Positions 26,328 to 64,000 are shown, counted from the stretch's first letter. The stretch: DNA of 64,000 bases from Mayamaea pseudoterrestris (GCA_027923505.1 BROI01000019.1:558001-622000); one strand, 5' to 3'. Numbers and translations are program-made. The notes: a model not told the origin generated them from the sequence alone.

Positions 26328-26488
26328 GGTGATGACGACAAAGTGCGCGCGTCGCAACAAAGTGTGTGGTCAAGCGCAATTGAAAAGAACTATGATTCGT
26401 GAATACTCCGTTGACGCGACTATTCAAGACGAAATTCCGATGCGCGCGAGTGTTAACCATCTCATCACCAATACCATCCTTCTTGTTG

Positions 26489-28124: not shown

Positions 28125-28241
28125 TATGCGAGAGACCAAGAACAATGTACTTATCCGACTGCCATGCTATCGGTCGACAACTGGTGGACGATATGGCCAC
28201 GAGTAATTGCACGCCACCTTAAAAGCTTCCAAGTATCAACT

Positions 28242-34827: not shown

Positions 34828-35319
34828 CAACGAAACGCTTGGTCAAGTGCCTTTTTCGATTTGCGGATAATGTTGTCGCAAAACCTGAGGCTGATGTGTA
34901 AACTTTCGCGTGACTATCAAACATGCACGAGGCGGGCCAAGGAATCGCAAGGACACGAACGTTTTGCCGATCGCTTGTGATTCGTTGCCCAGTCGCAATT
35001 TGCGCGCGCCAATGCATCTCACTGCTTCGGCGTGGGAGTCATTTCGAGCATTTAGCAAGACTGAAAACGAAGAAATGACCGCTGACAAACTTCAATGACC
35101 GCTCAGACACGTCAGTCATCGCGCCCAAGCATTCGAAACAGCAGAAACCGCTTCGAGTCTTGGCGAAAGGTTTTGCACCACCACCAAGAAGAAAATCGGA
35201 AGGACGAGCAGCAACAGCGCAACTACTCTCATGTCGAGGTAGAAGAGGCTTTCAATTGACTCTCTACAGACTTTGCTAGAACTATCTGAAGTGGTCGCTG
35301 CAGCACCCGTCGAATTTGT

Positions 35320-36864: not shown

Positions 36865-36969
36865 CAGTTATCTTATCAGTTTAAATGTTTATGTACTTTG
36901 CTATTTTTTCTGAAAATTATCGAGCCACCTTGAACATTTAATGATTTAGCATGCAGCTTATCAAGTGCC

Positions 36970-38886: not shown

Positions 38887-39428
38887 ATTCTTCGTCTATA
38901 GGCAGCAATGAAAAAACCTTAGCTGTGTGTGGACAAAGCCATGGCGGTGCGCAATCGAACAAAACGTGTGCATCATCCATGTGCATCGGCTGGCGCGCCG
39001 GCGCGGAGGGACTTTGGAATGAAAACGTGACCCAGAATCGCAGCGTTACTTACGTCTCACGATGCGACGCGAATCTGCGCCAACGAGGTATGCATCGCTG
39101 GCAAATAGTATAGAAGCCGATTTGCTAGCGGACTATGTACTTATACACCTATTCAGTTGCATCTGCGCAGTCACAGAAATGGATAGCGCATTATTGACGG
39201 AATATTATCTGAAGTAAAGGCTTCCTGGACCGCGAAGGTTGCAGCGACGACGAATGATACCGGTACAAAACTTCAAACATATATACATCGCATTGCAAGC
39301 AGGCATTTACCACCGTGACAATGAAGACAGCTCGCTGCACAACAGCGTCGACGCGTTTGTATCCAGAAGTTACGGCCACTCCTGTAGCAAGTGGCGACGT
39401 CATCGTGACTATTGCAACATCATCCTAG

Positions 39429-41048: not shown

Positions 41049-41249
41049 GGTGGTTTTTATGTGAGTGACGACTGTATGACCGAAAGAAAAATCTGATGAC
41101 CCGTGGAGTAACGAAGCGACGTTACGAGCCTTCATCGCTAAATCTTTTAGCTATCGATACAGGTACCTATTGATACCTGGAGTGCGTATATACTTACACG
41201 TTGACGTACGAGTAACATAAAGGCAAAGACAAGTCAGTAATCGTAAAAT

Positions 41250-42614: not shown

Positions 42615-42927
42615 GTTTCCTTGTTCGTCGTAGGATCTTCGGCAAGGAAAGGACTTTTGTTGACTTCATTGATCAGGTTGCGCCGATGAGGTAAAACATC
42701 GTCACAAATTGGCCGAAAATTTCGAAATCGGTTCAAAGCTGACTTTCAACACTTATATGCCTAAACTTTTCGCAAAATGTCACGCACGATTTCGAACGGA
42801 CGATCCGTTTCTTCCCTGAGACTCGTATCGGTACTCGATCACCTTTCGATTCGTTCTTTCGAAGCGGCCATGGGCGATTATGGAACCAACAGCCGCTCGA
42901 TGAAGCAGCGAGCGAACCGATACAACA

Positions 42928-44505: not shown

Positions 44506-44844
44506 AAAGAAATCGTTAACATTGTCCTCGGAAGTGATGCGCGTTAATTCATGCGACCTTTCAGACACAGTAATAGCTGTTGAGCAACCACGAGGGGTAC
44601 TACTGGTCCATATATGTAACCTAAGGATCGAAATCTGTATATTATCTTTACAACTTTGTTGGCTGTCTGGGTAGGCAACGTAAAAGAGCTGCAAGTTCTT
44701 CAACTCTATAAAGCTCATAGCAATCATCGCATCGGTACTGAGTTATTTGTTCTTTCAAACCACCGATTCGTCGGCCCTTCCTCTATTCGACCACAAAAAG
44801 CGACAATTTAAGCTTTGACGGACGGCTCTGAGTGTGTATGCTGA

Positions 44845-46386
44845 ATGAACAAATTACAAGAAGATGCAGACGACATGGAGTGGGTGCTGTTGGTGCCTCC
44901 CAAGCTGACCCAACTCGTCTACAAGGCCCTCGTCGGCTGCGACTGCGTAAGCCGTCCATGGGAACTAGCCGGCCGCACCGGAGCACGAATTCACAGTCAC
45001 TCAGAAACGCAAATTGGAATTCCAATTGCGAGAAAGGAATTGCTTGATGCTTTGATTCAAAATGCAAGTGCCGGAAATGGCATTGTCGATGACAACCTTG
45101 GGCCTGACAATGACGACAGCCAGAACTACAACAATGAGGATCGAATCTTTCTACGCGACCTTCTATCACACACTCCTGGTGTTGAATTGATACGGAAACC
45201 GTTTACAGCTTCAAAATCGGCCAAAATATACGAAGAAAAACAATTCGATGCACGTGTTCATCCAGAGCGAGCTCCCAGTCCAGATGAAGGAGCTGGCTGC
45301 AACATGGACAACGACTCGACAATGTCACCAGCATTCACTTACGCCGAACTCTTTGCCGGTATTGGTGGATTTGGTGTGGCGCTGGAGCGTCTTGGTGGAA
45401 CGTGCATCTTTTGCTCCGAGCTGGAAGAATCTTGTCGAGACTTGTATTCGCTCATCTTTCCGAACACGAAGCACCTTGCTGGCGATATACTAGAGGTTCT
45501 TGACCATGACCTACCGAAAGCAGGTACACTGGATTTGCTCGTTGCTGGGTTTCCTTGCCAACCGTTTTCGGCTCTCGGCGAACAGCCGGGGCTGACCTGT
45601 CCAACGAAAGGCAACTTATTTCTTCAAGTCGTGCGCCTCCTGAAGGTGTCACAGCCCAAGGCTTTTCTCCTTGAGAACGTTCCTGGACTGCTGGGTATGG
45701 TCAAGGATTTGGAAGTTATAACAACTGCATTGGAAGAAGCAGGATATGATGTTACCATTGAGGTTTGTAGCTCGCGGGGTTTGACTGCTTCTATGCGCAA
45801 ACGGCTTTACTTTGTGGGGCTCCGCAAGGAGGAACAAGAAGATCAATTCTCGCATCCATTCGAATTTCCATATATTCCGGACCTTGGTTTGCGCGCGAGA
45901 CATATTCTTTTATACAATGACAATCCCGAGAACGATTCACTGCGCGTTTCCGATGATCAATTCGCTCGGCTGCAGCGCGAGAATCACTGGCGGCCGAACC
46001 ACATGGCATGGCCCACCACCGTGTGCGATACCTTGGTGTCGCATTATGGAAACGCCATTGGGCAAGGCAACAGCCAGCTAGTGCCTTGCGCGCGTGGAAA
46101 GCCTCGTCGGTTCACGCCGCGCGAGTGCGCCCGCCTCATGGGCTTTCCAAACTCGTACAAGCTTTTTGACAAGCCCCGCCAGCATCAAGGGGAAATGGCA
46201 TTCGTCAAGGAGCAGTATCGTATGTTTGGTAACGCTGTTTGTCCTCCCATCATTGCGGCTCTAGCCGGAGCAGTCTTGGCGCATTGCGACAGCATTGGTG
46301 GTTACAAAAACCATGAGGACTGGGTTGCTTTTGGACGGTTTTGTGCGGTGGAGCTAGCCCAGGCTGCGATGCTACCCAAGTCTTAA
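44845..46386 (+). CDS. DNA (cytosine-5)-methyltransferase, bacterial Dcm/HhaI-like, with ~160-aa N-terminal extension
   Basis: Motif I ELFAGIGGF, IV LVAGFPCQPFS, VI FLLENVPGL, VIII RKRLYFVG, IX RRFTPRECARLMGFP, X MFGNAVCPP in canonical order. Confidence 0.93.
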   Translation: MNKLQEDADDMEWVLLVPPKLTQLVYKALVGCDCVSRPWELAGRTGARIHSHSETQIGIPIARKELLDALIQNASAGNGIVDDNLGPDNDDSQNYNNEDRIFLRDLLSHTPGVELIRKPFTASKSAKIYEEKQFDARVHPERAPSPDEGAGCNMDNDSTMSPAFTYAELFAGIGGFGVALERLGGTCIFCSELEESCRDLYSLIFPNTKHLAGDILEVLDHDLPKAGTLDLLVAGFPCQPFSALGEQPGLTCPTKGNLFLQVVRLLKVSQPKAFLLENVPGLLGMVKDLEVITTALEEAGYDVTIEVCSSRGLTASMRKRLYFVGLRKEEQEDQFSHPFEFPYIPDLGLRARHILLYNDNPENDSLRVSDDQFARLQRENHWRPNHMAWPTTVCDTLVSHYGNAIGQGNSQLVPCARGKPRRFTPRECARLMGFPNSYKLFDKPRQHQGEMAFVKEQYRMFGNAVCPPIIAALAGAVLAHCDSIGGYKNHEDWVAFGRFCAVELAQAAMLPKS

Positions 46387-46951
46387 TAGCAGCTTCGAGC
46401 GACTCAAGCTTGATGGCTACTTGCAGCGTAGCGGTACGGTAAAAGCGTCACTCCGAATCTACGAATTGTGCATGGATGCAAACCAACTTTCTCGCGACGG
46501 GGAGCAAGGTGTGTACCGCTCCGACGATCATTTGACTTTTCATTCTTGCTTTCGGAACAGATGGTCGCAGACCATGAGTATTCGACCACAAACAAGCAAG
46601 CATGCTGCCATCACCGCTTTTCGCTTAGCGACTATACGTAGAATATAAGATTGAAGTGCTTTCAAGCGCTCATTGCACAATGCTGAGCTTGATGGCTTGT
46701 TTGTCATTGTATTATGAAGCCGTTATGGAACGCGAGCCTCGAGTGGAACGTGGAACGACGACAAAATTGTCGAGCATCAACGTTGCGACGGTCATTCGTG
46801 ACCTCGAGGAACCAGCTTGATCCTCCTCTTTCAATATGCAAGATGTGCAAGAAATGGACATCTTTAACCTGTGGTGATATCTGCATGCGCATGACCAACG
46901 AAAGTTGCACTCAAACGAACCAGCAGTCGTGAGACTCGCGAAACAGAGGCA

Positions 46952-48856
46952 ATGGGTTGCTTATGTTGCTGTAAGAGTTCGTTTGTCAAAGCATGGTTTG
47001 CAATATTCGCATATTCGCTCCTTTCGCAATGCGTTTCATCGCTCACTTTCAAGAACGGAGCGAAGGACGATGCAACTGCCTACACGCTGCCACAAGTTTC
47101 CGTGATTGCTGAGTACGCCACACAAGCTCAGCTACGCATTACAAGTACATCCGACACTTTGCAAGGTCCGCTTCAAAAGCAGACAGAGATTTATTTGGCC
47201 GTCTACATGTTTAGAGAGTTTTCTGTGCAGCAATCTCTAAATTTTGGAAAACTTGTTTCGTTTTCGCTGGATGCCAAAGTCTACACCTTGCCCTACAACG
47301 AAACGCATACCTTACTGCAGGCAGACTTGCAGGGCAACATTTACTGGCTCGACCAGCCAGCGAAATCGGACGTTACGACTGCCATGCTCGACTTGTACCA
47401 GCAAGCATTCATGACAAAGGAAGGCGTGGGCGAATTGCAGAATCGCTTTCAAGATGAACTTGGCTTGGAGGGAGTCGAGATATTGCGCACACGAGTACAA
47501 GATCGCAAGTATAATACGCGCACGGGCAAGACATCTGGGGAAAAGCCGCAGGGTGCCGCTCCTGCTAACCCAGATGCATCACCGTCGTCTCCAGAAACAT
47601 CTGAAAGCAGCAGTTTCATCATCAGCAATTATTTATTGATCTTTATCGCTGTTATTCTTGTTGCATTGTCACTCCTCCTTGCAGTCTTTGCTATATGCGT
47701 CAGTAAGCGCAAGTACCAGCAACGTGTACGCGCCGAAAATGCGAAAGTGACGGAGAAGCAAGCTGAAGCGGCGTCCTTGCCGACGGATCCAGGCGGCGAA
47801 GACGTTGAAAGTGTCGTGAGCAATTATAGTGGAGGAGATGCAGGTCTTTTACCTGGCAAAACAGACAAAGACCGCCCTGATGATCTTTTGCGGGGCTGGG
47901 CAAGCCCGCAAGAGCCATCACAGTTCGTGCAGAACGTTCGCAACAGCAGGGCGCTTAATACATTCCTGAAAGTTGTGGGACTCGAGACCCCAGCAGATCC
48001 TGAACAAGCCGACAAAGGTAACTTTCGGCAGAACGAGCGCGAAAGAATTTTAAACGATGGAACTGCCATTGAGCGAAGCGAAAAACTTGTGGTACCAAAG
48101 TACAAGAAGGATATATTTAGCATGAATAGTGCAAAGCTCGAGCAGAATCTTGATGATCTCTATAGCCTTTCATTTTCCAACATCCAGCAGGCAGCGGAAG
48201 ACCAGAAAGTAATTGAAGATGATGAACCGGAGAACGGAGAGATATTGGACGTTGATGTACTTGCTGTGTCTGCGGTGCATCGCCTCACGCGTGCACACAG
48301 CGCGCCTTTGTCGGACAGGTTGGGAAGTTCTACCACTGAAAAAGTTTCTGATGACCGACCACTTGTTTCATCACTGAACACTGCCCATTCAAAAACACCC
48401 GGTGAAGCGGAGCAAGCGAGACGCGACGATTTGATGAGAGCGTGGAATCGAGTTGAAGAAAAAGTGTGTGCAGATAAGAAGACACTAATGAGTGCGCCAC
48501 CTATTTCGATTGATTACAAGACTGATAGCAACGTCAGCGATCTCATGCGAGGCTGGAAGTATGACGACGGGAGATCCGTTGGGCACATTTCGAGCAGCGA
48601 AGAAAGCAAACTGCGAAATAGTGGCGTCGCCGCAGCTGGCACTTGTGTTGGTCCGACAATGACTGAAAAAGAAGCAGGTACAATTTTCGAACGCCTTGTT
48701 GCTTCGCCGGCTGCGGACGAGTCTGGCTTTGTGCTCCCGACTACGAAAAACATGTCTGGCTCGTCTGATGAACACACAGAGCCTACAATGGATGTCAGCT
48801 ACGAGACTGAAGCCGGCGCTTCGTCCGCATCTTTCGATGAGCACTCGGACTTGTAG
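46952..48856 (+). CDS. Hypothetical type I membrane protein
   Basis: 634-aa ORF; hydrophobic N-terminus, ectodomain, TM YLLIFIAVILVALSLLLAVFAICV, long acidic tail. Confidence 0.8.
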   Translation: MGCLCCCKSSFVKAWFAIFAYSLLSQCVSSLTFKNGAKDDATAYTLPQVSVIAEYATQAQLRITSTSDTLQGPLQKQTEIYLAVYMFREFSVQQSLNFGKLVSFSLDAKVYTLPYNETHTLLQADLQGNIYWLDQPAKSDVTTAMLDLYQQAFMTKEGVGELQNRFQDELGLEGVEILRTRVQDRKYNTRTGKTSGEKPQGAAPANPDASPSSPETSESSSFIISNYLLIFIAVILVALSLLLAVFAICVSKRKYQQRVRAENAKVTEKQAEAASLPTDPGGEDVESVVSNYSGGDAGLLPGKTDKDRPDDLLRGWASPQEPSQFVQNVRNSRALNTFLKVVGLETPADPEQADKGNFRQNERERILNDGTAIERSEKLVVPKYKKDIFSMNSAKLEQNLDDLYSLSFSNIQQAAEDQKVIEDDEPENGEILDVDVLAVSAVHRLTRAHSAPLSDRLGSSTTEKVSDDRPLVSSLNTAHSKTPGEAEQARRDDLMRAWNRVEEKVCADKKTLMSAPPISIDYKTDSNVSDLMRGWKYDDGRSVGHISSSEESKLRNSGVAAAGTCVGPTMTEKEAGTIFERLVASPAADESGFVLPTTKNMSGSSDEHTEPTMDVSYETEAGASSASFDEHSDL

Positions 48857-49107
48857 GAGCTTCTGTTAACAAGTAAGCTAAGATGTGCATGTTAAGTTAT
48901 CTCTAAATACACGATGCAGTAGCCTCTTTTCATCTATATATTATTAGCTATTTGTAGAAGTTCGAATATAATTGTACAAACAATCAAAGTCCTTTTAGCC
49001 CTGCCTGTGCGGCGGGCAGCCAGCAGTGCTCTCAGAGTATGCAGTGATGCTGTTTTTGAATGGCTAGAGACAGCTAATGCGTACCATTTTTTTTAAAAAA
49101 GAAAGTA

Positions 49108-50514
49108 TTATACAGATACACCGGTGTGGCTCCGATCATAGAGCGAGTTAGTCGAGATTGACGACACTGACTCTGACGCATTTGAAGCACCTTCGAGTGC
49201 CTGCTGCGCAAACAAGTTATGTCCGCAGCCTTTTGGAATCCGTGGCATGCGAGCCCGCGTATGAGGCATCCGAATAAAGTAGCATCCAGCGGTCTCTGCA
49301 ATGTGTTCGGATCGAATGTCAGCCTCGTCCGAGGTTTCTCGAGCCGAGTCGCTAAAGTTTCCACAGCTCGGGCTATAGGGTCCCTGCGCGGTCTTGTCGT
49401 CAATGATAATGCCTTGCTTCTCGGATCCAAAGTCCAATGCATCTTGAAAAGCTTGCAAACACCAGTTAATGAAAATTGCTCCGGGTAGTAGCAATGGTAT
49501 TCCGAAACAAACCACCATCCAGCCATATCCTTGGTGCATCGGCTCCAAATGCTCCACAACGTGAATTGCACCAGCTATACTGCCCAAAACCAGCGATCCC
49601 GATAGGGCCATGGATAGTTTTCTGCATTTGGACGCCTTCCAAAGGCAATATTCCTCGTCCAGAAACTGCTGCTGCTGTTCTTCCTCCTGCAGCTCCTTTT
49701 CATAATCGTCGCGAATCACCGAATATGTTGGCTCTTGCGGCAAAACAAGCAGCTCCACATTGCTGAAGCCTTCCTCAAGAGGCAGCTGACTCTCGAATTG
49801 TTTCCGAATGTGGAGTCGATGCGGTTTTGCAAGGCTGTTCGAGTAGTATTGGTTCGTGCATTCCGAAATGAGCGAAGGACAATTGATTGCGGCAGCCCAG
49901 ATTTGTGCATTGTCCAACGAATCAACTGTATCCATGATTGGGCTCATGACGGGTACCATATAGTCAATGACGGCGCTATAGACTGGTATACCAAGCTCCG
50001 AGTCTCGTATTGATACTTGACGAATATGTCCAAGTACAATCATACTCTCCGTTTGGTACTTGCCGCGCAATTCACTTTCCGCGCTCTTGACGACACTGGA
50101 AAGCATCCAGACGGCCCACCCCAGCGCCATGGCGAGACAGGCAAACACATCGGAAATGTGCGTATAGTAGTTGGCGTAATTGTGGCGTTGATTGTTGTAG
50201 CGATAGGAGCGTCCGCCCGCATCGGCGTCGTAGTATGGATCGCGACTATAGGAACGTCTGTAGGAGTACTGGTAAGTGTTGTAGTTGTTCGCGTAGTGAT
50301 GATTGTTGTGATTGTTATTATGATTATTCCTGTCGCGGTCGTCTCGATTATTATGTTGCCGATTGTTGTGGTCCTCCAACGCACGTTGTCGACGATGCAG
50401 CAACGGCTGCTCTATGACGGCTGCGGCATCGATACGCGTCACGCAGCATGCCAGAAACGCGGTCGCGGAGGTCAGTTTTCTTCTAAAAGAGCTTCGTAGC
50501 TTACAGTTAGTCAT
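49108..50514 (-). CDS. Hypothetical multi-pass membrane protein with N/H/Y/R-rich N-terminal region
   Basis: 468-aa ORF; signal-like segment, HNNNNHNN/YxY low complexity, three further hydrophobic segments. Confidence 0.75.
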   Translation of the reverse strand: MTNCKLRSSFRRKLTSATAFLACCVTRIDAAAVIEQPLLHRRQRALEDHNNRQHNNRDDRDRNNHNNNHNNHHYANNYNTYQYSYRRSYSRDPYYDADAGGRSYRYNNQRHNYANYYTHISDVFACLAMALGWAVWMLSSVVKSAESELRGKYQTESMIVLGHIRQVSIRDSELGIPVYSAVIDYMVPVMSPIMDTVDSLDNAQIWAAAINCPSLISECTNQYYSNSLAKPHRLHIRKQFESQLPLEEGFSNVELLVLPQEPTYSVIRDDYEKELQEEEQQQQFLDEEYCLWKASKCRKLSMALSGSLVLGSIAGAIHVVEHLEPMHQGYGWMVVCFGIPLLLPGAIFINWCLQAFQDALDFGSEKQGIIIDDKTAQGPYSPSCGNFSDSARETSDEADIRSEHIAETAGCYFIRMPHTRARMPRIPKGCGHNLFAQQALEGASNASESVSSISTNSLYDRSHTGVSV

Positions 50515-50828
50515 GGTGTGAATTACTAGAATGGTGGTTGCTGATGGACGCTCGGAGCGTGTGACACTTTTTTGCGTTCGCCATGGTCGCTCGCGGCGAC
50601 TGTTTTCATGAACGATAGGACGTCATCAGCTGTTCTGTAACGGCTGCGACGAGCCGGCAACGTCTCATTACCACTACGACAGATCCTGACGCTTCGCGAT
50701 CTTTTCATGCGCGTCAGCGCGGCGCGCCGCGAATCCATCGATCATTCTCACCATGGCACTTTCTGACTTTGTGAGCAGCTTCACTTTCTCTCAGTTACAT
50801 AGAATCTATCTACTCATAGAACATTACC

Positions 50829-52112
50829 ATGCAACAGAATCCCCCCATCTGCGGTGGCAACTGTTGCTGCTTCCAATGTGTTCGTCAGCAAGAAGTGTAA
50901 GAACCTCCGGCATTCGGCAGCAAGCCACGTGCAACGTTACATCGCGACGAAACACTTTCAAATGCAATCGAATCTTACTCTTTCATCTCGCATTTTGACG
51001 CAGAGCTGTTGTCGAGAATCTCGGAGAGTTTAAAGGTATGTTTGACTTCGTTGACTATCGCTATCTATGTTTTTCTTGCATGCCTGCATGGCGTCGGCGC
51101 TTGACCGACGAGTGTGCGATTTTTGATGGTGAATTCATCGCATTCATAGTGATCTAGCCTCAGACATTTTATTTTGTTTTAGTATCCTAAAGCTCACGCT
51201 TCTATCCTTACTATCTACAGAACTCCTTGACCCTGGATTGCACTGCATTCTTTGGCCCCTTCAGTGCGTCGTTGGTCGCTTGTCGCTTCGCCTCCAGCAA
51301 CTCAACGTGACCTGCGAAACCAAGACGAAGGACAATGTCTTTATTCAAGTCGCCGTGGCGGTGCAGTATCGCGTCATTCTCGAGGGAGCCTACAATGCGT
51401 GGTATCGCTTAACGGATCCTCGTGGGCAGATTCAAAGTTACGTGTTTGACGTTGTCCGCTCCACCATTCCCAAGATGGAACTCGACGAAGCCTTTGCAAG
51501 CAAGGATGACATTGCCAAGGCCGTCTTGACGTCGTTGCAGCGCGTCATGCAGGAATATGGGTATGAGATTCGCGCGACGCTGGTGACGGACCTCATGCCC
51601 GACAGCAAGGTCAAGGCGAGCATGAACGAGATTAACGCTAGCCGACGATTAAAGGAAGCTGCCTCGCACAAGGCTGAAGCTGAAAAGACTAGGTACGCAA
51701 GAGTGGGTGCCTCATATCTGCGATGCATTGGTGTGATTGGCAAATTTCAATATGATTCAGTTGTAGTTGTAGTTGCCAACACTGACCTGTCCATCTTCAT
51801 CAATTATTCTCCAGACAAGTAAAGGCTGCGGAAGCAGAGGCGGAAGCTCGCTACTTGTCAGGCTTGGGTGTGGCGCGTCAGCGGAAGGCTATCATCGAGG
51901 GTCTCCAAGCATCCGTGGCGGAATTTACCGAGGAGGTTGATGGCACCAGCGCAAGCGACGTCATGAGCATTCTACTCTTGACGCAGTATCTTGATACTTT
52001 GAGTGCTGTGGGTGCCAATTCCATCTTTTTGGAACATGATCCTGCGACGGTGGCAAACCTGCAGGCAACCATTGGTGAACACTTTTTGAAGACTGCCAGC
52101 AACTCCAAGTGA
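50829..52112 (+). CDS. SPFH/Band-7 protein, hypersensitive-induced-response (HIR)-like; join(50829..50896,51004..51035,51221..51692,51815..52112)
   Basis: Three GT-AG introns with consistent phases give CCCFQCVRQQEVAVVENLGEFKELLDPGLH, CETKTKDNVF, SYVFDVVRS, AEAEARYLSGLGVARQR, LLTQYLDTL. Confidence 0.92.
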
Positions 52113-52327
52113 ATGTCATCGCCTTTCGTCCCCCTACGATGAGCATGACTTTTCATCCTGACAGTAATTAGTAAATAATGTAGGACTCGTATACGTAGTA
52201 AAATCATGTGATCAAGAAGTTATGTGTTCATGAAGCTGCTATTTACAGAAGGCATTGTGACAGAGATGAATCATATTTGGAAATTGCCGATGTTTTACAT
52301 CACTAGTACGGGAGGTATGGTGGAAGA

Positions 52328-53330
52328 GAGACACCAGCCAGTCAACGTATCTTGTAGCGCACCTGAAATAAGGATGTTTGCACCATTCTGGCTTGATTTG
52401 GGCATACACATGGCTCAAGGTATGGGCATTTAAAAGGCGGCAGCTGCTGGCTAAGAGTGGTGACAAGTTACCACCAAGCACATTGCAGTCCACTGAGACA
52501 CCAGCCTACACTTTAGATAAGGATGTTACCACCATTCTGGCTTCATTTGGTCATACACATGGCTCGAGGTATGGGCATTTGAAAAACATGACAGATGCTG
52601 GCTGAGACTGGTGACAAGTTAATATCAATCACGTTGAAGTCCTTAATGACACTAGTTAGTCCACTTATCTTGCAGAGCACCAGAAATAAGGATGTATACA
52701 CCATTCTAGCTTGATGTGGGCATACACATGGCTCAAGGTATGGGCATTTGAAAGGTGTGGTAGCTGCTAGCTGAGACTGGTGACAAGTTTTCACCAATTA
52801 TATTGCAGTCCACTGAGACACCAACCAGTTAGCTTATCATGAAGCGCACCTGAATAAGGATGTTTGCACCATTTCAACTTGAGTTGGGTGTGCACATGGC
52901 TCAAGGTATGGGCATTTGAAAGGCTTGGCATCTGCAATCTGAGATTGGTGACAACTTGTCACCAATCACATTGCAGTCCACAGAGACACCAGCCAGGCAT
53001 ACAATCTTCTCGCGCAGACTGAATAATGATGTTGGCACCATTATGGTGTGATTTGGATGTATACATGGCATGTTATATGGGCAATTGAATGTAATGGCAT
53101 CAGCGGGCTGAGATTGGTGACAACTTGTCACCAATCACATTGAAGTCCACGAAGACACAAGCCAGGAATACCATATTTGTAGCACAGACTGAATAATGAT
53201 GTTGGCACCATTCTGGTGTGATTTGGGTGTATAAATGGCATGTTATATGAGCAATTGAATGTAATGGCATCTGCAGGCTGAGATTGGTGACAAGTTGTCA
53301 CCAACCACATTGCAGTCCACGGACAAGTTC
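52328..53330. repeat. Diverged edge monomers of the 169-bp satellite (~6 copies, some partial)
   Basis: Recognisable GAGACACCAGCC, CACCATTCTGG, GGCATTTGAA and TGGTGACAA(C/G)TTGTCACCA blocks with many substitutions and indels. Confidence 0.88.
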
Positions 53331-56300
53331 TCATCAAATACATTGCCATCCCCTGAGACACCAGCCAAGCCTACCATCTTGTAGCGCAGCCTGAATAATG
53401 ATGTTGGCACCAATCTGGTGTATTTTGGGCACCTACAGGGCTTGCTGTAGGGGTGTTTGAATGACACGGCATCTGCGGGCTGTGACAGATGACAAGTTGT
53501 CACCAAATACATTGCCATCCCCTGAGTCACCAGCCAAGCCTACCATCTTAAAGCGCAGCCTGAATAATGATGTTGGCACCATTCTGGTGTATTTTGGGCA
53601 CCTACAGGGCTTGCTGTAGGGGCGTTTGAATGTCACGGCAGCTGCGGGCTGAGACTGGTGACAAGTTGTCACCAATCACATTGCCATCCCCTGAGACACC
53701 AGCCAAGCCTACCATCTTGTAGCGCAGCCTGAATTTTGATGTTGGCACCATTCTGGTGTATTTTGGGCACCTACAGGGCTTGCTGCAGGGGTGTGTGAAT
53801 GTCACGGCATCTGCGGGCTGAGACTGGTGACAAGTTGTCACCAAATACATTGCCATCCCCTGAGACACCAGCTAAGCCTACCATCTTGCAGCGCAGCCTG
53901 AATAATGATGTTGGCATCATGCTGGTGTATTTTGGGCACCTACAGGGCTTGCTGTAGGGTGTTTGAATGTCACGGCATCTGCGGGCTGAGACTGGTGACA
54001 AGTTGTCACCAAATACATTGCCATCCCCTGAGACACCAGCCAAGCCTACCATCTTGCAGCGCAGCCTGAATAATGATGTTGGCACCATGCTGGTGTATTT
54101 TGGGCACCTACAGGGCTTGCTGTAGGGTGTTTGAATGTCACGGCATCTGCGGGTGGAGACTGGTGACAAGTTGTCACCAAATACATTGCCATCCCCTGAG
54201 ACACCAGCCAAGCCTACCATCTTGTAGCGCAGCCTGAATAATGATGTTGGCACCATTCTGGTGTATTTTGGGCACCTACAGGGCTTGCTGTAGGGGCGTT
54301 TGAATGTCACGGCATCTGCGGGCTGAGACTGGTGACAAGTTGTCACCAAATACATTGCCATCCCCTGAGACACCAGCCAAGCCTACCATCTTGTAGCGCA
54401 GCCTGAATAATGATGTTGGCACCATTCTGGTGTATTTTGGGCACCTACAGGGCTTGCTGTAGGGGCGTTTGAATGTCACGGCATCTGCGGGCTGAGACTG
54501 GTGACATGTTGTCACCAAATACATTGCCATCCCCTGAGACACCAGCCAAGCTTACCATCTTGTAGCGCAGCCTGAATAATGATGTTGGCACCATTCTGGT
54601 GTATTTTGGGCACCTACAGGGCTTGCTGCAGGGGCGTTTGAATGTCACGGCATCTGCGGGCTGAGACTGGTGACAAGTTGTCACCAGATACATTGCCATC
54701 CCCTGAGACACCAGCCAAGCCTACCATCTTGTAGCGCAGCCTGAATAATGATGTTGGCACCATTCTGGTGTATTTTGGGCACCTACAGGGCTTGCTGTAG
54801 GGGCGTTTGAATGTCACAGCATCTGCGGGCTGAGACTGGTGACAAGTTGTCACCAAATACATTGCCATCCCCTGAGACACCAGCCAAGCCTACCATCTTG
54901 TAGCGCAGCCTGAAGTATGATGTTGGCACCATTCTGGTGTATTTTGGGCACCTACAGGGCTTGCTGTAGGGGCGTTTGAATGACACGGCATCTGCGGGCT
55001 GAGACTGGTGACAAGTTGTCACCAAATACATTGCCATCCCCTGAGACAACAGCCAAGCCTACCATCTTGTAGCGCAGCCTGAATAATGATGTTGGCACCA
55101 TTCTGGTGTATTTTGGGCACCTACAGGGCTTGCTGAAGGGGCGTTTGAATGTCACGGCATCTGCGGGCTGAGACTGGTGACAAGTTGTCACCAAATACAT
55201 TGCCATCCCCTGAGTCACCAGCCAAGCCTACCATCTTAAAGCGCAGCCTGAATAATGATGTTGGCACCATTCTGGTGTATTTTGGGCACCTACAGGGCTT
55301 GCTGTAGGGGCGTTTGAATGTCACAGCATCTGCGGGCTGAGACTGGTGACTAGTTGTCACCAAATACATTGCCATCCCCTGAGACACCAGCCAAGCCTAC
55401 CATCTTGTAGCGCAGCCTGAAGTTTGATGTTGGCACCATTCTGGTGTATTTTGGGCACCTACAGGGCTTGCTGTAGGGGCGTTTGAATGTCACGGCATCT
55501 GCGGGCTGAGACTGGTGACAAGTTGTCACCAAATACATTGCCATCCCCTGAGACAACAGCCAAGCCTACCATCTTGTAGCGCAGCCTGAATAATGATGTT
55601 GGCACCATTCTGGTGTATTTTGGGCACCTACAGGGCTTGCTGAAGGGGCGTTTGAATGTCACGGCATCTGCGGGCTGAGACTGGTGACAAGTTGTCACCA
55701 AATACATTGCCATCCCCTGAGACACCAGCCAAGCCTACCATCTTGTAGCGCAGCCTGAATAATGATGTTGGCACCATTCTGGTGTATTTTGGGCACCTAC
55801 AGGGCTTGCTGTAGGGGCGTTTGAATGTCACAGCATCTGCGGGCTGAGACTGGTGACTAGTTGTCACCAAATACATTGCCATCCCCTGCGACACCAGCCA
55901 AGCCTGCCATCTTGTAACGCAGCCTGAGTAATGATGTTGGCACCATTCTGGTGTATTTTGGGCACCTACAGGGCTTGCTGCAGGGGTGTTTGAATGTCAC
56001 GGCATCTGTGGGCTGAGACTGGTGACAAGTTGTCACCAAATACATTGCCATCCCCTGAGACACCAGCCAAGCCTACCATCTTGTAGCGCAGCCGGAATAA
56101 TGATGTTGGCACCATTCTGGTGTATTTTGGGCACCTACAGGGCTTGCTGTAGGGGCGTTTGAATGTCACGGCATCTGCGCGCTGAGACTGGTGACAAGTT
56201 GTCACCAAATACATTGCCATCCCCTGAGACACCAGCCAAGCATACCATCTTGTAGCGCAGCCTGAATAATGATGTTGGCACCATTCTGGTGTATTTTGGG

Positions 56301-59300
56301 CACCTACAGGGCTTGCTGTAGGGGCATTTGAATGACACAGCATCTGCGGGCTGAGACTGGTGACAAGTTGTCACCAAATACATTGCCATCCCCTGAGACA
56401 CCAGCCAAGCCTACCATCTTGTAGCGCAGCCTGAATAATGATGTTGGCACCATTCTGGTGTATTTTGGGCACCTACAGGGCTTGCTGTAGGGGCGTTTGA
56501 ATGACACGGCATCTGTGGGCTGTGACTGGTGACAAGTTGTCACCAAATACATTGCCGTCCCCTGAGACTCCAGCCAAGCCTACCATCTTGTAGTGCAGCC
56601 GGAAAATGATGTTGGCATCATGCTGGTGTATTTTGGGCACCTACAGGGCTTGCTGTAGGGGCGTTTGAATGTCACGGCATCTGTGCGCTGAGACTGGTGA
56701 CAAGTTGTCACCAAATACATTGCCATCCCCTGAGACACCAGCCAAGCCTACCATCTTGTAGCGCAGCCGGAAAAATGATGTTGGCACCATTCTGGTGTAT
56801 TTTGGGCACCTACAGGGCTTGCTGTAGGGGCGTTTGAATGTCACGGCATCTGCGGGCTGAGACTGGTGACAAGTTGTCACCAAATACATTGCCATCCCTA
56901 AGACACCAGCCAAGCCTACCATCTTGTAGCGCAGCCTGAATAATGATGTTGGCACCATTCTGGTGTATTTTAGGCACCTACAGGGCTTGCTGTAGGGGCA
57001 TTTGAATGTCACGGCATCTGCGGGCTGAGACTGGTGACAAGTTGTCACCAAATACATTGCCATCCCCTGAGACACCAGCCAAGCCTACCATCTTGTAGCG
57101 CAGCCGGAATAATGATGTTGGCACCATTCTGGTGTATTTTGGGCACCTACAGGGCTTGCTGTAGGGGCGTTTGAATGTCACGGCATCTGCGGGCTGAGAC
57201 TGGTGACAAGTTGTCACCAAATACATTGCCATCCCCTGAGACACCAGCCAAGCCTACCATCTTGTAGCGCAGCCTGAATAATGATGTTGGCACCATTCTG
57301 GTGTATTTTGGGCACCTACAGGGCTTGCTGTAGGGGCGTTTGAATGTCACGGCATCTGCGGGCTGAGACTGGTGACAAGTTGTCACCAAATACATTGCCA
57401 TCCCCTGAGACACCAGCCAAGAGTACCATCATGTAGCGCAGCCTGAATAATGGTGTTGGCACCATTCTGGTGTATTTTGGGCACCTACAGGGCTTGCTGT
57501 AGGGGCGTTTGAATGTCACGGCATCTGCGGGCTGAGACTGGTGACAAGTTGTCACCAAATACATTGCCATCCCCTGAGACACCAGCCAAGCCTACCATCT
57601 TGTAGCGCAGCCGGAATAATGATGTTGGCACCATTCTGGTGTATTTTGGGCACCTACAGGGCTTGCTGTAGGGGCGTTTGAATGTCACGGCATCTGCGGG
57701 CTGAGACTGGTGACAAGTTGTCACCAAATACATTGCCATCCCCTGAGACACCAGCCAAGCCTACCATCTTGTAGCGCAGCCTGAATAATGATGTTGGCAC
57801 CATTCTGGTGTATTTTGGGCACCTACAGGGCTTGCTGTAGGGGCGTTTGAATGTCACGGCATCTGCGGGCTGAGACTGGTGACAAGTTGTCACCAAATAC
57901 TTTGCCATCCCCTGAGTCACTAGCCAAGCCTACCATCTTGTAGCGCAGCCGGAATAATGATGTTGGCAACATTCTGGTGTATTTTGGGCACCTACAGGGC
58001 TTGCTGCAGGGGCGTTTGAATGTCACGGCATCTGCGGGCTGAGACTGGTGACAAGTTGTCACCAAATACATTGCCATCCCCTGAGACACCAGCCAAGCCT
58101 ACCATCTTGTAGCGCAGCCGGAATAATGATGTTGGCACCATTCTGGTGTATTTTGGGCACCTACAGGGCTTGCTGTAGGGGCGTTTGAATGTCACGGCAT
58201 CTGCGGGCTGAGACTGGTGACAAGTTGTCACCAAATACATTGCCATCCCCTGAGACACCAGCCAAGCCTACCATCTTGTAGCGCAGCCTGAATAATGATG
58301 TTGGCACCATTCTGGTGTATTTTGGGCACCTACAGGGCTTGCTGTAGGGGCGTTTGAATGTCACGGCATCTGCGGGCTGAGACTGGTGACAAGTTGTCAC
58401 CAAATACATTGCCATCCCCTGACACACCAGCCAAGCCTACCATCTTGTAGCGCAGCCGGGATATTGATGTTGGCACCATTCTGGTGTATTTTGGGCTCCT
58501 ACATGGCTTGCTGTAAGGGCGTTTGAATGTCATGGCATCTGCGGGCTGAGACTGGTGACAAGTTGTCACCAAATACATTGCCATCCCCTGAGACACCAGC
58601 CAAGCCTACCATCTTAAAGCGCAGCCTGAATAATGATGTTGGCACCATTCTGGTGTATTTTGGGCACCTACAGGGCTTGCTGTAGGGGCGTTTGAATGTC
58701 ACGGCATCTGCGGGCTGAGACTGGTGACAAGTTGTCACCAAATACATTGCCATCCCCTGAGACACCAGCCAAGCCTACCATCTTGTAGCGCAGCTGGAAC
58801 AATGATGTTGGCACCATTCTGGTGTATTTTAAGCACCTACAGGGCTTGCTGTAGGGGCATTTGAATGTCACGGCATCTGTGCGCTGAGACTGGTGACAAG
58901 TTGTCACCAAATACATTGCCATCCCCTGAGACACCAGCCAAGAGTACCATCATGTAGCGCAGCCTAAATAATGATGTTGGCACCATTCTGGTGTATTTTG
59001 GGCACCTACAGGGCTTGCTGTAGGGGCGTTTGAATGTCACGGCATCTGCGGGCTGTGACTGGTGACAAGTTGTCACCAAATACATTGCCATCCCCTGAGA
59101 CACCAGCCAAGCCTACCATCTTGTAGCGCAGCCGGAACAATGATGTTGGCACCATTCTGGTGTATTTGGGCACCTACAGGGCTTGCTGTAGGGGCGTTTG
59201 AATGTCACGGCATCTGCGGGCTGAGACTGGTGACAAGTTGTCACCAAATACATTGCCATCCCCTGAGACACCAGCCAAGCCTACCATCTTGTAGCGCAGC

Positions 59301-62300
59301 CTGAATAATGATGTTGGCACCATTCTGGTGTATTTTGGGCACCTACAGGGCTTGCTGTAGGGGCGTTTGAATGTCACGGCATCTGCGGGCTGAGACTGGT
59401 GACAAGTTGTCACCAAATACATTGCCATCCCCTGAGACACCAGCCAAGCCTACCATCTTGTAGCGCAGCCGGAATAAAGATATTGGCACCATTCTGGTGT
59501 ATTTTGGGCACCTACAGGGCTTGCTGTGGGGGCGTTTGAATGTCACAGCATCTGCGGGCTGAGACTGGTGACAAGTTGTCACCAAATACATTGCCATCCC
59601 CTGAGACACCAGCCAAGCCTACCATCTTGTAGCGCAGCCTGAATAATGATGTTGGCACCATTCTGGTGTATTTTGGGCACCTACAGGGCTTGCTGTAGGG
59701 GCGTTTGAATGTCACGGCATCTGCGGGCTGAGACTGGTGACAAGTTGTCACCAAATACATTGCCATCCCCTGAGACACCAGCCAAGCCTACCATCTTGTA
59801 GCGCAGCCGGAATAATGATGTTGGCACCATTCTGGTGTATTTTGGGCACCTACAGGGCTTGCTGTAGGGGCGTTTGAATGTCACGGCATCTGCGGGCTGA
59901 GACTGGTGACAAGTTGTCACCAAATACATTGCCATCCCCTGAGACACCAGCCAAGCCTACCATCTTGTAGCGCAGCCTGAATAATGATGTTGGCACCATT
60001 CTGGTGTATTTTGGGCACCTACAGGGCTTGCTGTAGGGGCGTTTGAATGTCACGGCATCTGCGGGCTGAGACTGGTGACAAGTTGTCACCAAATACATTG
60101 CCATCCCCTGAGACACCAGCCAAGCCTACCATCTTGTAGCGCAGCCTGAATAATGATGTTGGCACCATTCTGGTGTATTTTGGGCACCTACAGGGCTTGC
60201 TGTAGGGGCGTTTGAATGTCACGGCATCTGCGGGCTGAGACTGGTGACAAGTTGTCACCAAATACATTGCCATCCCCTGAGACACCAGCCAAGCCTACCA
60301 TCTTGTAGCGCAGCCGGAATAAAGATATTAGCACCATTCTGGTGTATTTTGGGCACCTACAGGGCTTGCTGTGGGGGCGTTTGAATGTCACGGCATCTGT
60401 GGGCTGTGACTGGTGACAAGTTGTCACCAAATACATTGCCATCCCCTGAGACACCAGCCAAGCCTACCATCTTGTAGCGCAGCCTGAATAATGATGTTGG
60501 CACCAATCTGGTGTATTTTGGGCACCTACAGGGCTTGCTGTAGGGGCGTTTGAATGTCACGGCATCTGCGGGCTGTGACTGGTGACAAGTTGTCACCAAA
60601 TACATTGCCATCCCCTGAGTCACCAGCCAAGCCTACCATCTTGTAGCGCAGCCTGAATAATGATGTTGGCACCAATCTGGTGTATTTTGGGCACCTACAG
60701 GGCTTGCTGTAGGGGCGTTTGAATGTCACGGCATCTGCGGGCTGTGACTGGTGACAAGTTGTCACCAAATACATTGCCATCCCCTGAGTCACCAGCCAAG
60801 CCTACCATCTTAAAGCGCAGCCTGAATAATGATGTTGGCACCATTCTGGTGTATTTTGGGCACCTACAGGGCTTGCTGTAGGGGCGTTTGAATGTCACGG
60901 CAGCTGCGGGCTGAGACTGGTGACAAGTTGTCACCAAATACATTGCCATCCCCTGAGACACCAGCCAAGCCTACCATCTTGTAGCGCAGCCTGAATAATG
61001 ATGTTGGCACCAATCTGGTGTATTTTGGGCACCTACAGGGCTTGCTGTAGGGGCGTTTGAATGTCACGGCATCTGCGGGCTGTGACTGGTGACAAGTTGT
61101 CACCAAATACATTGCCATCCCCTGAGTCACCAGCCAAGCCTACCATCTTGTAGCGCAGCCTGAATAATGATGTTGGCACCATTCTGGTGTATTTTGGGCA
61201 CCTACAGGGCTTGCTGTAGGGGCGTTTGAATGTCACGGCATCTGCGGGCTGAGACTGGTGACAAGTTGTCACCAAATACATTGCCATCCCCTGAGACACC
61301 AGCCAAGCCTACCATCTTGTAGCGCAGCCGGGATATTGATGTTGGCACCATTCTGGTGTATTTTAAGCACCTACAGGGCTTGCTGTAGGGGCATTTGAAT
61401 GTCACGGCATCTGCGGGCTGAGACTGGTGACAAGTTGTCACCAAATACATTGCCATCCCCTGAGACACCAGCCAAGCCTACCATCTTGTAGCGCAGCCTG
61501 AATAATGATGTTGGCACCAATCTGGTGTATTTTGGGCACCTACAGGGCTTGCTGTAGGGGCGTTTGAATGTCACGGCATCTGCGGGCTGAGACTGGTGAC
61601 AAGTTGTCACCAAATACATTGCCATCCCCTGAGTCACCAGCCAAGCCTACCATCTTGTAGCGCAGCCGGAATAATGATGTTGGCACCATTCTGGTGTATT
61701 TTGGGCACCTACAGGGCTTGCTGTAGGGGCGTTTGAATGTCACGGCATCTGCGGGCTGAGACTGGTGACAAGTTGTCACCAAATACATTGCCATCCCCTG
61801 AGACACCAGCCAAGCCTACCATCTTGTAGCGCAGCCTGAATAATGATGTTGGCACCATTCTGGTGTATTTTGGGCACCTACAGGGCTTGCTGTAGGGGCG
61901 TTTGAATGTCACGGCATCTGCGGGCTGAGACTGGTGACAAGTTGTCACCAAATACATTGCCATCCCCTGAGACACCAGCCAAGCCTACCATCTTGTAGCG
62001 CAGCCTGAATAATGATGTTGGCACCATTCTGGTGTATTTTGGGCACCTACAGGGCTTGCTGTAGGGGCGTTTGAATGTCACGGCATCTGCGGGCTGAGAC
62101 TGGTGACAAGTTGTCACCAAATACATTGCCATCCCCTGAGACACCAGCCAAGCCTACCATCTTGTAGCGCAGCCTGAATAATGATGTTGGCACCATTCTG
62201 GTGTATTTTGGGCACCTACAGGGCTTGCTGTAGGGGCGTTTGAATGTCACGGCATCTGCGGGCTGAGACTGGTGACAAGTTGTCACCAAATACATTGCCA

Positions 62301-64000
62301 TCCCCTGAGTCACCAGCCAAGCCTACCATCTTGTAGCGCAGCCTGAATAATGATGTTGGCACCATTCTGGTGTATTTTGGGCACCTACAGGGCTTGCTGT
62401 AGGGGCGTTTGAATGTCACGGCATCTGCGGGCTGAGACTGGTGACAAGTTGTCACCAAATACATTGCCATCCCCTGAGACACCAGCCAAGCCTACCATCT
62501 TGTAGCGCAGCCTGAATAATGATGTTGGCACCATTCTGGTGTATTTTGGGCACCTACAGGGCTTGCTGTAGGGGCGTTTGAATGTCACGGCATCTGCGGG
62601 CTGTGACTGGTGACAAGTTGTCACCAAATACATTGCCATCCCCTGAGACACCAGCCAAGCCTACCATCTTGTAGCGCAGCCTGAATAATGATGTTGGCAC
62701 CATTCTGGTGTATTTTGGGCACCTACAGGGCTTGCTGTAGGGGCGTTTGAATGTCACGGCATCTGCGGGCTGAGACTGGTGACAAGTTGTCACCAAATAC
62801 ATTGCCATCCCCTGAGACACCAGCCAAGCCTACCATCTTGAAGCGCAGCCTGAATAATGATGTTGGCACCATTCTGGTGTATTTTGGGCACCTACAGGGC
62901 TTGCTGTAGGGGCGTTTGAATGTCACGGCATCTGCGGGCTGAGACTGGTGACAAGTTGTCACCAAATACATTGCCATCCCCTGAGACACCAGCCAAGCCT
63001 ACCATCTTGTAGCGCAGCCTGAATAATGATGTTGGCAACATTCTGGTGTATTTTGGGCACCTACAGGGCTTGCTGCAGGGGCGTTTGAATGTCACGGCAT
63101 CTGCGGGCTGAGACTGGTGACAAGTTGTCACCAAATACATTGCCATCCCCTGAGACACCAGCCAAGCCTAACATCTTGTAGCGCAGCCTGAATAATGATG
63201 TTGGCACCATTCTGGTGTATTTTGGGCACCTACAGGGCTTGCTGTAGGGGCGTTTGAATGTCACGGCATCTGCGGGCTGAGACTGGTGACAAGTTGTCAC
63301 CAAATACATTGCCATCCCCTGAGACACCAGCCAAGCCTACCATCTTGTAGCGCAGCCTGAATAATGATGTTGGCACCAATCTGGTGTATTTTGGGCACCT
63401 ACAGGGCTTGCTGTAGGGGTGTTTGAATGTCACGGCATCTGCGGGCTGTGACTGGTGACAAGTTGTCACCAAATACATTGCCATCCCCTAAGTCACCAGC
63501 CAAGCCTACCATCTTAAAGCGCAGCCTGAGTAATGATGTTGGCACCATTCTGGTGTATTTTGGGCACCTACAGGGCTTGCTGTAGGGGCGTTTGAATGTC
63601 ACGGCAGCTGCGGGCTGAGACTGGTGACAAGTTGTCACCAAATACATTGCCATCCCCTGAGACACCAGCCAAGCCTACCATCTTGTAGCACAGCCGGAAT
63701 AATGATGTTGGCACCATTCTGGTGTATTTTGGGCACCTACAGGGCTTGCTGTAGGGGCGTTGGAATGTCACGGCATCTGCGGGCTGAGACTGGTGACGAG
63801 TTGTCACCAAATACATTGCCATCCCCTGAGACACCAGCCAAGCCTACCATCTTGTAGCGCAGCCTGAATAATGATGTTGGCACCATTCTGGTGTATTTTG
63901 GGCACCTACAGGGCTTGCTGTAGGGGCGTTTGAATGTCACGGCATCTGCGGGCTGAGACTGGTGACAAGTTGTCACCAAATACATTGCCATCCCCTGAGA
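53331..64000. repeat. Homogeneous 169-bp tandem satellite, ~63 monomers, continuing past the window end
   Basis: Consensus CATTGCCATCCCCTGAGACACCAGCCAAGCCTACCATCTTGTAGCGCAGCCTGAATAATGATGTTGGCACCATTCTGGTGTATTTTGGGCACCTACAGGGCTTGCTGTAGGGGCGTTTGAATGTCACGGCATCTGCGGGCTGAGACTGGTGACAAGTTGTCACCAAATA; ORF-track starts recur every 169 nt. Confidence 0.98.

Follow-up and report, generated by a model that had tools for sequence, protein, structure and literature searches.

A 169-base satellite array next to gene-dense DNA in a diatom genome: probable heterochromatin and a tentative centromere candidate

Results and Discussion

Flanking genes and origin of the DNA

The window, i.e. the whole stretch of 64,000 bases that was analysed, consists of a gene-dense part followed by a tandem array (Table 1). 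In positions 1..52300, 31 stop-to-stop frames of at least 200 amino acids were found, and the Pfam families determined for this flank include Nop, B56, ABC transporter, SET, C-5 DNA methylase and Band_7. The end of the Band_7 gene is intact, and the first satellite unit begins 215 bases past its stop codon. No transposon-rich or gene-poor transition zone was found before the array. For the ABC transporter encoded in the window, every named best match was a diatom protein, with identities of 66-75%. Since the array adjoins ordinary eukaryotic genes and the relatives of the ABC transporter are diatom proteins, the stretch is assigned to the nuclear DNA of a diatom. A preliminary description of this DNA had spoken of a repeat directly abutting gene-dense DNA in a diatom-like genome; the first point is confirmed by the 31 long frames and the short distance to the Band_7 stop codon, and the second is supported by the best matches of the ABC transporter.

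Table 1. Positions of the features in the window (strand "." where no orientation applies)
Feature	Position	Strand	Evidence
Band_7/SPFH gene, 3' part, with one intron near 51700-51821 and the stop codon at 52110-52112	51133..52112	+	PF01145, E 4.7e-26; sequence
Edge zone, six diverged units of the 169-base family, one of them truncated	52328..53321	+	identity to core consensus
Core of the 169-base satellite array with homogeneous units (63.2 copies), continuing past the window end	53322..64000	+	period, anchor spacings, consensus distance, variant mosaic
Second short dyad, example (10-base arms, 6 bases between)	57143..57168	.	arms 90% complementary
19-base palindrome, example (9-base arms, 1 base between), once per unit	57201..57219	.	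arms 100% complementary

Structure and homogeneity of the array

For the 63.2 copies of the core, Tandem Repeats Finder gave a period of 169 with 96% matches, 0% indels and a score of 20126, and two weaker rows were obtained at 52517..52996 (period 169, 80% matches) and 52770..53313 (period 170, 82% matches). Similarity to the unit was observed from position 52328 on, which amounts to 11,673 bases of repeat. A 14-base anchor occurred 62 times, and the 61 spacings between its occurrences comprised 55 of 169 bases, five of 168 bases and one of 338 bases. The units are oriented head to tail, and at least 63 copies are present here. Compared to the 2-kb bins preceding the array, which showed a GC content of 0.45-0.52, the array showed 0.52, with a range of 0.45-0.58 in 100-base windows. 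The more than 11.6 kb of a 169-bp monomer of roughly half GC, starting at 52328 and continuing off the window, which had been described before, were thus found again with the repeat finder, the anchor and the consensus similarity.

Sixty units were cut at the anchor; their mean deviation from the consensus was 1.62%, and 11 units matched it completely. The repeat block of the window is a single family and not a layered stack. A higher-order repeat was not found, as the mean pairwise differences stayed between 4.4 and 5.3 over lags of 1-20 units without a periodic dip. Instead, shared variants form a scattered mosaic, in which the same variant combinations return in units far apart. The unit comprises no internal sub-repeat, its sole self-match besides the palindrome being 6-7 bases long, and no copy of it was found elsewhere in the window (matches to 1..52327 of 14-19 bases, E of at least 2.1).

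At the border to the genes the picture changes in steps. In their order, the six edge copies showed identities to the core consensus of 77.2%, 76.0% (104 bases only), 72.3%, 72.6%, 82.5% and 82.0%, followed by a jump to 96.45%. Since the core is homogeneous, its shared variants are scattered as a mosaic and no higher-order period is present, unequal exchange and gene conversion between units would be the processes that hold the core nearly uniform. The border units escape this homogenisation and decay, as the identity steps at the edge show.

Palindrome and second dyad

The 19-base palindrome is exact in 59 of 69 copies and carries 0.32 changes per base, compared to 1.05 elsewhere in the unit. 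In the edge copies, 9 mismatches were counted in 114 palindrome cells, whereas the overall amount was 28%, which makes the palindrome the best-kept part of the unit. We infer that it is a candidate protein-binding or non-B-DNA site. The second short dyad is found in the core units only; in the alignment, the edge copies show a different sequence at this site.

Metagenomes were scanned for the 19-base palindrome with both centre bases permitted, which gave at least 121 loci. These were judged to be chance palindromes and not the satellite. In a BLAST comparison of the unit with the 121 listed loci, the palindrome alone was matched over 21-26 bases, in addition to one match of 34 bases at 88%.

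Genomic abundance

The abundance was estimated from summed contig depths (word depth) in two public runs of two studies, X1 and X2, which gives a rough measure and no copy number. Three rows labeled "rhizosphere metagenome", with a share of 0.05, were left out of this depth comparison. Among the sequencing runs listed, none was of RNA or chromatin. Of the 555,133 contig records of X1, 72,413 (13%) fell on positions 50500..53800, and the same region took up 14,194 of the 182,933 records (7.8%) of X2. In the four bins from 53275 to 53718, the mean summed word depth was about 6.4 million for X1 and 754,000 for X2, while the sixteen unique bins from 50500 to 52275 showed only about 147 and 32, respectively. 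The resulting ratio of repeat to unique flank, again rough and no copy number, was about 43,500 for X1 and 23,600 for X2. Because these ratios lie at about 44,000 and 24,000, the data suggest that the 169-base family makes up several megabases genome-wide.

Stop-to-stop frames over the array reach at most 203 amino acids, and most of them comprise 53 or 91 amino acids. Altogether, the array is a long, non-coding tandem array of high copy number with concerted evolution, and it is therefore satellite DNA.

CpG decay and packaging of the array

The observed/expected ratio of CpG was 0.35 in the array compared to 1.09 in the flank, and it decreased to 0.22 in the edge zone, which has a GC content of 0.45. 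Correspondingly, TG and CA were increased to 1.66 and 1.68 in the array compared to 1.21 each in the flank. Of the 164 differences from the consensus, 22 were located on the 8 CpG bases among 169 positions, and all 22 were C>T or G>A changes; one 169-base unit with 4 CpG in its consensus was amplified many times here, and these counts refer to cells and not to independent events. The four CpG sites of the consensus correspond to 24 cells in the edge copies, of which 5 showed CG, 14 TG or CA and 5 other sequences; this comparison of core and edge is unpolarised. Hypermutation from TpA to TpG or CpA was considered as well and was not seen, the TA ratio being 0.71 in the array and 0.59 in the flank.

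Judging from the CpG loss and the CpG-centred transitions, silent heterochromatin with methylated cytosines is the most likely packaging of the array. Two proposals had been made in the preliminary description, namely a centromere architecture of a different kind and a large block of heterochromatin. The block is indirectly backed by the abundance, the lack of coding capacity, the homogenised core with its decayed edges and the CpG decay. For the centromere proposal the sequence features are mixed, as discussed below. It is very probable that the array represents one of the arrays of a major non-coding satellite family of a diatom nuclear genome, which would be homogenised by exchange, decayed at its edges and embedded in methylated heterochromatin.

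Chromosomal place of the array

Interstitial or pericentromeric heterochromatin is a quite plausible place for the array, at somewhat less than an even chance.

A subtelomeric satellite, with the array located between the outermost gene of an arm and the telomere, is possible but rather unlikely. It would fit to an array that directly adjoins gene-dense DNA and runs off the window, and the record with the gene of the window has 720,860 bases, so that an end position is possible. This length is about the size of a small diatom chromosome. On the other hand, the window contains no run of two or more TTAGGG or CCCTAA units, although the array continues beyond it, and none of the 24 loose ends listed, of 24 + 557, is telomeric. 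The unit consensus comprises no occurrence of TTAGGG, CCCTAA, TTAGG or CCTAA. A telomere-like motif inside a subtelomeric unit, which is also known from Chlamydomonas, is not universal. The precedent in another stramenopile is Ectocarpus, for which a subtelomeric satellite of about 98 bases bordering gene-bearing DNA is described (PMC11541908). However, the Ectocarpus unit comprises three TTAGGG motifs, and its arrays beside the telomeres range from a few to about 100 copies (PMC11541908), whereas the unit described here lacks even a single telomere-like motif and is present in at least 63 copies with no telomere in view. Furthermore, if the estimate of several megabases holds, the subtelomeres would be very large for so small a genome.

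Nucleosome-sized centromeric satellites are well known, with units of about 171 bases in primate alpha satellite and about 178 bases in Arabidopsis. It is nevertheless doubtful that the centromeres of this diatom consist of the 169-base family, bound by CENH3. The same holds true for the detailed form of this proposal, in which each chromosome would have one array and each unit one CENH3 nucleosome, possibly aided by the palindrome, and we likewise give little credence to the GC-neutral satellite being CENH3-bound with the palindrome as a recognition or non-B-DNA element. Consistent with centromere DNA are the unit length close to one nucleosome repeat, the very high abundance in terms of contig depth and the highly homogeneous core with its deviation of 1.62%. 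Among the tandem repeats of many animals and plants, the centromeric repeat is the most abundant (Melters et al. 2013, PMC4053949), but in grasses the location of a satellite is not predicted by its abundance (PMC5453492). The short dyad is kept across the subfamilies, a feature that is not specific to centromeres, and short dyad symmetry has been reported to be enriched at centromeres (Kasinathan and Henikoff 2018, PMC5889037).

As a point against a centromere, a nucleosome-positioning periodicity of WW or SS near 10 bases was not found in the array, since 0.43-0.70 of the shuffles reached the observed amplitude at the periods 9.94 and 10.56. The intact gene at a distance of 215 bases, without a transition as in a pericentromere, speaks against a centromere as well. 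A higher-order organisation, which is typical of primate centromeres and not universal, is absent from the array.

The known diatom centromeres provide a further comparison. The centromeres mapped in P. tricornutum are low in GC and not repetitive, and 500 bases of low-GC DNA maintain episomes (Diner et al., 10.1101/096016), which is in line with the short, AT-rich and non-satellite centromeres that the preliminary description had ascribed to this species. Similar low-GC regions were predicted for T. pseudonana (10.1101/096016), and for Fistulifera solaris low-GC centromeres were predicted and partly backed by a conjugation assay (10.1101/2021.11.10.468027). Judged by clusters of 100-base windows of 32% GC or less (10.1101/096016), the array contains no such window, its minimum being 0.45. 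Since its GC content is at least 0.45 per 100 bases and it is a pure tandem repeat, the array lies outside the Phaeodactylum-type class, and its range of 0.45-0.58 is unlike the low-GC, non-repetitive diatom centromeres. In favor of the satellite as centromere DNA, the adjoining 52 kb comprise no Phaeodactylum-type low-GC region either; the lowest GC content of any 500 bases across the window is 0.42.

Any place other than these is improbable.

Other explanations for the array

It is very improbable that the repeat consists of tandem small RNA genes (5S, spliced-leader, snRNA or tRNA-derived) or of another transcribed functional unit. A tandem arrangement with units of 100-400 bases is common for such genes, and short hairpins are present in the 169-base unit. 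However, positions 50000..56000 gave no Rfam match at E up to 1, the window comprises no tRNA gene, and the single-strand fold of the whole unit was no better than that of shuffles (z of -1.25; 24 of 200 shuffles folded equally well or better). In addition, one of the hairpins is missing from the edge subfamily, and a gene array with CpG decay and tens of thousands of copies would be unusual.

Long near-identical arrays are error-prone in assembly, and contigs cannot check how long the array of the window is or how its units are ordered. That an assembler had stacked or expanded the reads of a short repeat is nevertheless hardly credible. The unit is present at enormous depth in the runs of both studies, and the gene-satellite junction is crossed by one contig at full diploid depth without differences (553 bases of X2 spanning 51810-52362 and reaching 35 bases into the first unit). 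Moreover, the ordered decay of the edge copies is a biological pattern and not a stacking error.

Comparison with known systems and significance

With the centromeric satellites of animals and plants, the array shares the near-nucleosome unit, the long head-to-tail arrangement, the homogeneous core with diverged edges, the abundance and a short dyad or box. It differs from them by the missing higher-order repeat, by a GC content of about 0.52 instead of AT-richness, by the diatom host and by touching an intact gene, and it is known from sequence alone. Compared to the centromeres of P. tricornutum and Fistulifera solaris, the array belongs to the same algal group and is a candidate for the same chromosomal function, while theirs are short, low-GC and non-repetitive and the array is a pure tandem repeat (10.1101/096016, 10.1101/2021.11.10.468027). 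The satellite families of Phytophthora parasitica are likewise satellite DNA of a stramenopile, from another organism and with another sequence (PMC7290008). A literature search gave no diatom for which a satellite-based centromere or a large satellite share of the genome is described.

The genomes of the model diatoms are compact, and the centromeres that were mapped or predicted in them are small, AT-rich and non-repetitive. If the 169-base family comprises several megabases, satellite-rich heterochromatin exists in a diatom lineage, and the array is a concrete candidate for asking whether centromere architecture varies among diatoms. Should it turn out to be centromere DNA, diatoms would hold two architectures, short AT-rich unique DNA in Phaeodactylum and a megabase-scale satellite here. 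Ordinary non-centromeric heterochromatin would be a useful but unsurprising annotation. From a practical point of view, arrays of this kind break assemblies and might be used as maintenance elements for artificial chromosomes. Moreover, satellite arrays are natural targets for studies of DNA methylation and silencing in diatoms.

Observations in further data sets

In an index of other windows of this genome, which may cover little of it, the number of look-alikes of the 169-base unit was zero, by sequence as well as by place. No indexed stretch had short words in common with the unit, which therefore appears to represent a family of its own. For so large a family the lack of look-alikes is odd, unless most of its arrays are missing from the assembly or the coverage of the index is low.

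The 169-base unit was also detected at low depth in X6 and X8, two runs of other organisms from the same study as X1. X6 comprises one unique piece of 225 bases, which showed a depth of 2.1 and no differences. A conservation of the unit in other species was considered for this signal, and it was instead tentatively read as carry-over between libraries. Some loose ends in the data of X6 and X8 resemble what we take to be library-adapter sequence.

Organization of the array and its flank

The array consists of real, non-coding repeats of a 169-base satellite family that is very abundant in the nuclear genome of a diatom. The preliminary description had reported a 169-bp monomer of roughly half GC, beginning at 52328, continuing off the window and directly abutting gene-dense DNA, and these statements were borne out by Tandem Repeats Finder, anchor spacings, BLAST and base composition. 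A 14-base anchor occurred 62 times, and its 61 spacings measured 169 bases in 55 cases, 168 in five and 338 in one. When the border was compared with the consensus by BLAST, likeness to the unit started with the six edge copies, and from 53355 onward the identity leaps to 96.45%. The GC content of the array was 0.52 compared to 0.45-0.52 in the preceding 2-kb bins, and 0.45 in the edge copies.

The 60 units cut at the anchor diverged on average by 1.62% from their own consensus, with 11 being identical to it. Since the mean pairwise differences between units were flat (4.4-5.3) over lags 1-20 and identical variant combinations reappeared in units thousands of bases apart, no higher-order repeat is present across these lags, and the units form a mosaic from a common variant pool, consistent with gene conversion and unequal exchange. 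An array that is old and homogenised from within classically shows such a uniform core with progressively diverged edge copies of lower GC. Neither an internal sub-repeat in the unit nor a further copy elsewhere in the window was found, where the only other tandem repeats are short coding ones. Among other indexed stretches of DNA, no look-alike of the unit turned up.

Coordinates of the array, its flank and further features in the window
Feature	Position	Strand	Description
497-aa frame	11875-13368	+	long Pro/Ser/Lys-rich repeat region; tandemly repeated DNA (periods 24-156 bases)
Coding tandem repeats	22990-23208	+	45- and 66-base repeats closing a 625-aa frame at its 3' end and encoding a heptad-like tail rich in Gln and Glu
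513-aa frame	44845-46386	+	complete C-5 cytosine DNA methylase domain (PF00145, E 1.8e-57)
Second flank form	50758-51241 and 51728-51796		about half depth in contigs of X1 and X2
Band_7/SPFH gene	51133-52112	+	stop codon 52110-52112
Low-GC stretch	52145-52250		sole stretch of at most 32% GC near the array, about 100 bases
Edge copies	52328-53321		identity to core consensus, in order: 77.2, 76.0 (104 bases only), 72.3, 72.6, 82.5 and 82.0% (BLAST)
Weaker repeat rows	52517-53313		two rows, 80-82% matches (Tandem Repeats Finder)
Core	53322-64000		period 169, 63.2 copies, 96% matches, 0 indels, score 20126 (Tandem Repeats Finder)
Second dyad (example)	57143-57168		10-base arms, 90% complementary
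Palindrome (example)	57201-57219		9-base arms, one centre base

The 52 kb preceding the array contain 31 stop-to-stop frames of at least 200 aa, with Pfam matches including Nop, PP2A-B56, two ABC transporters, a SET-domain protein, a C-5 cytosine DNA methylase and Band_7, the stop codon of which lies 215 bases from the first unit. Among the best 120 matches of an ABC transporter of the window, every named relative was a diatom protein with 66-75% identity (including Seminavis, Cylindrotheca, Nitzschia, Phaeodactylum, Fistulifera, Thalassiosira and Cyclotella), and the top unnamed match showed 85%; the transporter itself was recovered from a record of 720,860 bases. Judged by these protein relatives, the window is nuclear DNA of a diatom lineage not close to the sequenced models. 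The product of the 497-aa frame resembles a repeat protein of the secreted or cell-surface kind. The low-GC stretch in the spacer between Band_7 and the array is probably the 3' untranslated region of the Band_7 gene; it falls well short of the 500 bases of low-GC DNA reported to maintain episomes in Phaeodactylum (10.1101/096016).

No reading frame is open across the units, the longest stop-to-stop frame over the array comprising 203 aa and most of them 53 or 91 aa. Rfam gave no match in 50000-56000 at E up to 1, and ARAGORN detected no tRNA gene. The single-strand fold of the whole unit was not better than that of shuffles (z -1.25), and a WW/SS periodicity of about 10 bases was absent, with 0.43-0.70 of the shuffles attaining the observed amplitude at periods of 9.94 and 10.56.

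Abundance in public sequencing runs

Eleven public runs share words with 50500-54500, all as contigs. Four of them, X1 and X2 from two studies as well as X6 and X8 (other organisms, same study as X1), were aligned to 50500-53800 at 85% likeness, and the depth was compared between 16 bins of unique flank (50500-52275) and four bins of the repeat (53275-53718). In X1, 72,413 of 555,133 records fell on the stretch, with a depth of about 147 in the flank and about 6.4 million in the repeat (ratio about 43,500), while X2 showed 14,194 of 182,933 records, about 32 and about 754,000 (ratio about 23,600). Summed contig depth is not a copy number and the ratios hold for the order of magnitude only; roughly, tens of thousands of units would amount to 4-7 Mb, a sizeable share compared to run contigs totalling 37-55 Mb.

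One X2 contig (record 14; 553 bases, 51810-52362) crosses from the gene flank 35 bases into the array with no differences and at full flank depth (30.6), and thus the gene-to-satellite junction is real; it is probably present on both haplotypes. In X1, part of the unique flank appears as two forms, at depths of about 63 and 68, and two haplotypes are thus suggested. The second flank form, which shows 34 differences over 485 bases along with several small indels, indicates a diploid cell with two quite divergent haplotypes.

Likeness of 85% or more to the edge copies is shown by numerous contigs, and the corresponding bins are 30 to 1,500 times as deep as the flank, whereas contigs identical to these copies reach depths of only 241-286. 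Hence, subfamilies related to the edge copies are abundant elsewhere, and the exact edge copies of this array are near single-copy. In X6 and X8 the unit was found at low depth on 52328-53800, in X6 together with one identical unique piece (depth 2.1). Some loose ends there are presumably library-adapter sequence. The satellite in these runs may well be a carry-over between libraries rather than a sign of conservation, which calls for caution in inferring conservation from them.

A conserved palindrome in the unit

Each unit carries a perfect palindrome, which 59 of 69 copies hold without change; all 69 show it when up to five changes are allowed. Over the 60 core units it showed 0.32 changes per base compared to 1.05 elsewhere. 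Against the six edge copies, 9 of 114 cells were mismatched, compared to 284 of 1,014 (28%) overall, and the least-changed 19-base windows all overlap the palindrome. Its left arm is unaltered in all six edge copies, and two of these are altered at the centre base only, which keeps the symmetry. The palindrome may be regarded as a candidate binding or non-B-DNA site, a modest case given six related edge copies. The second dyad occurs in core units only.

CpG depletion and chromosomal role

The CpG observed/expected ratio was 0.35 in the array compared to 1.09 in the flank, while TG (1.66) and CA (1.68) exceeded the flank value of 1.21 each. TA was not depleted (0.71 compared to 0.59). In total, the 60 units showed 164 departures from the consensus; 22 of these affect the 8 bases (of 169) that make up the CpG sites, each being a C>T or G>A change. 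In the edge copies (CpG ratio 0.22), the four consensus CpG sites read CG in 5 of 24 cases, TG or CA in 14 and otherwise in 5. Deamination of methylated CpG would produce such a footprint, seen here in a small sample from one amplified unit whose counted cells are not independent events. Cytosine methylation of diatom repeats has been reported (PMC9998398). About 6 kb from the array lies the C-5 methylase frame; its closeness is probably a coincidence.

Altogether, the array is most likely heterochromatin that would be homogenised by recombination and packaged in methylated form. The preliminary description had offered a satellite centromere or a large heterochromatic block. Concerning its position, interstitial or pericentromeric heterochromatin is a tentative reading, held with somewhat less than even confidence. 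A subtelomeric block is a somewhat less probable candidate. The subtelomeric satellite of Ectocarpus provides a precedent, but its unit of about 98 bases carries TTAGGG three times (PMC11541908), whereas the 169-base unit contains no telomere-like motif, and no (TTAGGG)n run occurs within the window, beyond which the array continues.

That the array would itself be the centromere core is rather unlikely. Its unit length, abundance, homogeneity and dyad resemble those of plant and animal centromeric satellites (PMC4053949, PMC5889037). The location of a satellite is not predictable from abundance alone (PMC5453492). The array, a tandem repeat with a GC of 0.45-0.58 per 100 bases, lies outside the low-GC range of mapped or predicted diatom centromeres. 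As the preliminary description had noted for P. tricornutum, the CENH3-mapped centromeres of Phaeodactylum are described as low-GC and not repeats, and in Thalassiosira pseudonana one similar region per scaffold has been predicted (10.1101/096016). For Fistulifera solaris, predicted centromeres of 36-42% GC are described as being without highly repeated elements, partly supported by a conjugation assay (10.1101/2021.11.10.468027). Outside the array, too, the window lacks a low-GC candidate of the Phaeodactylum type, the lowest 500-base GC being 0.42. The literature searched yielded no diatom with satellite centromeres or a large satellite fraction, and other papers may describe one; the array is a concrete candidate on which a second type of diatom centromere architecture could be tested.
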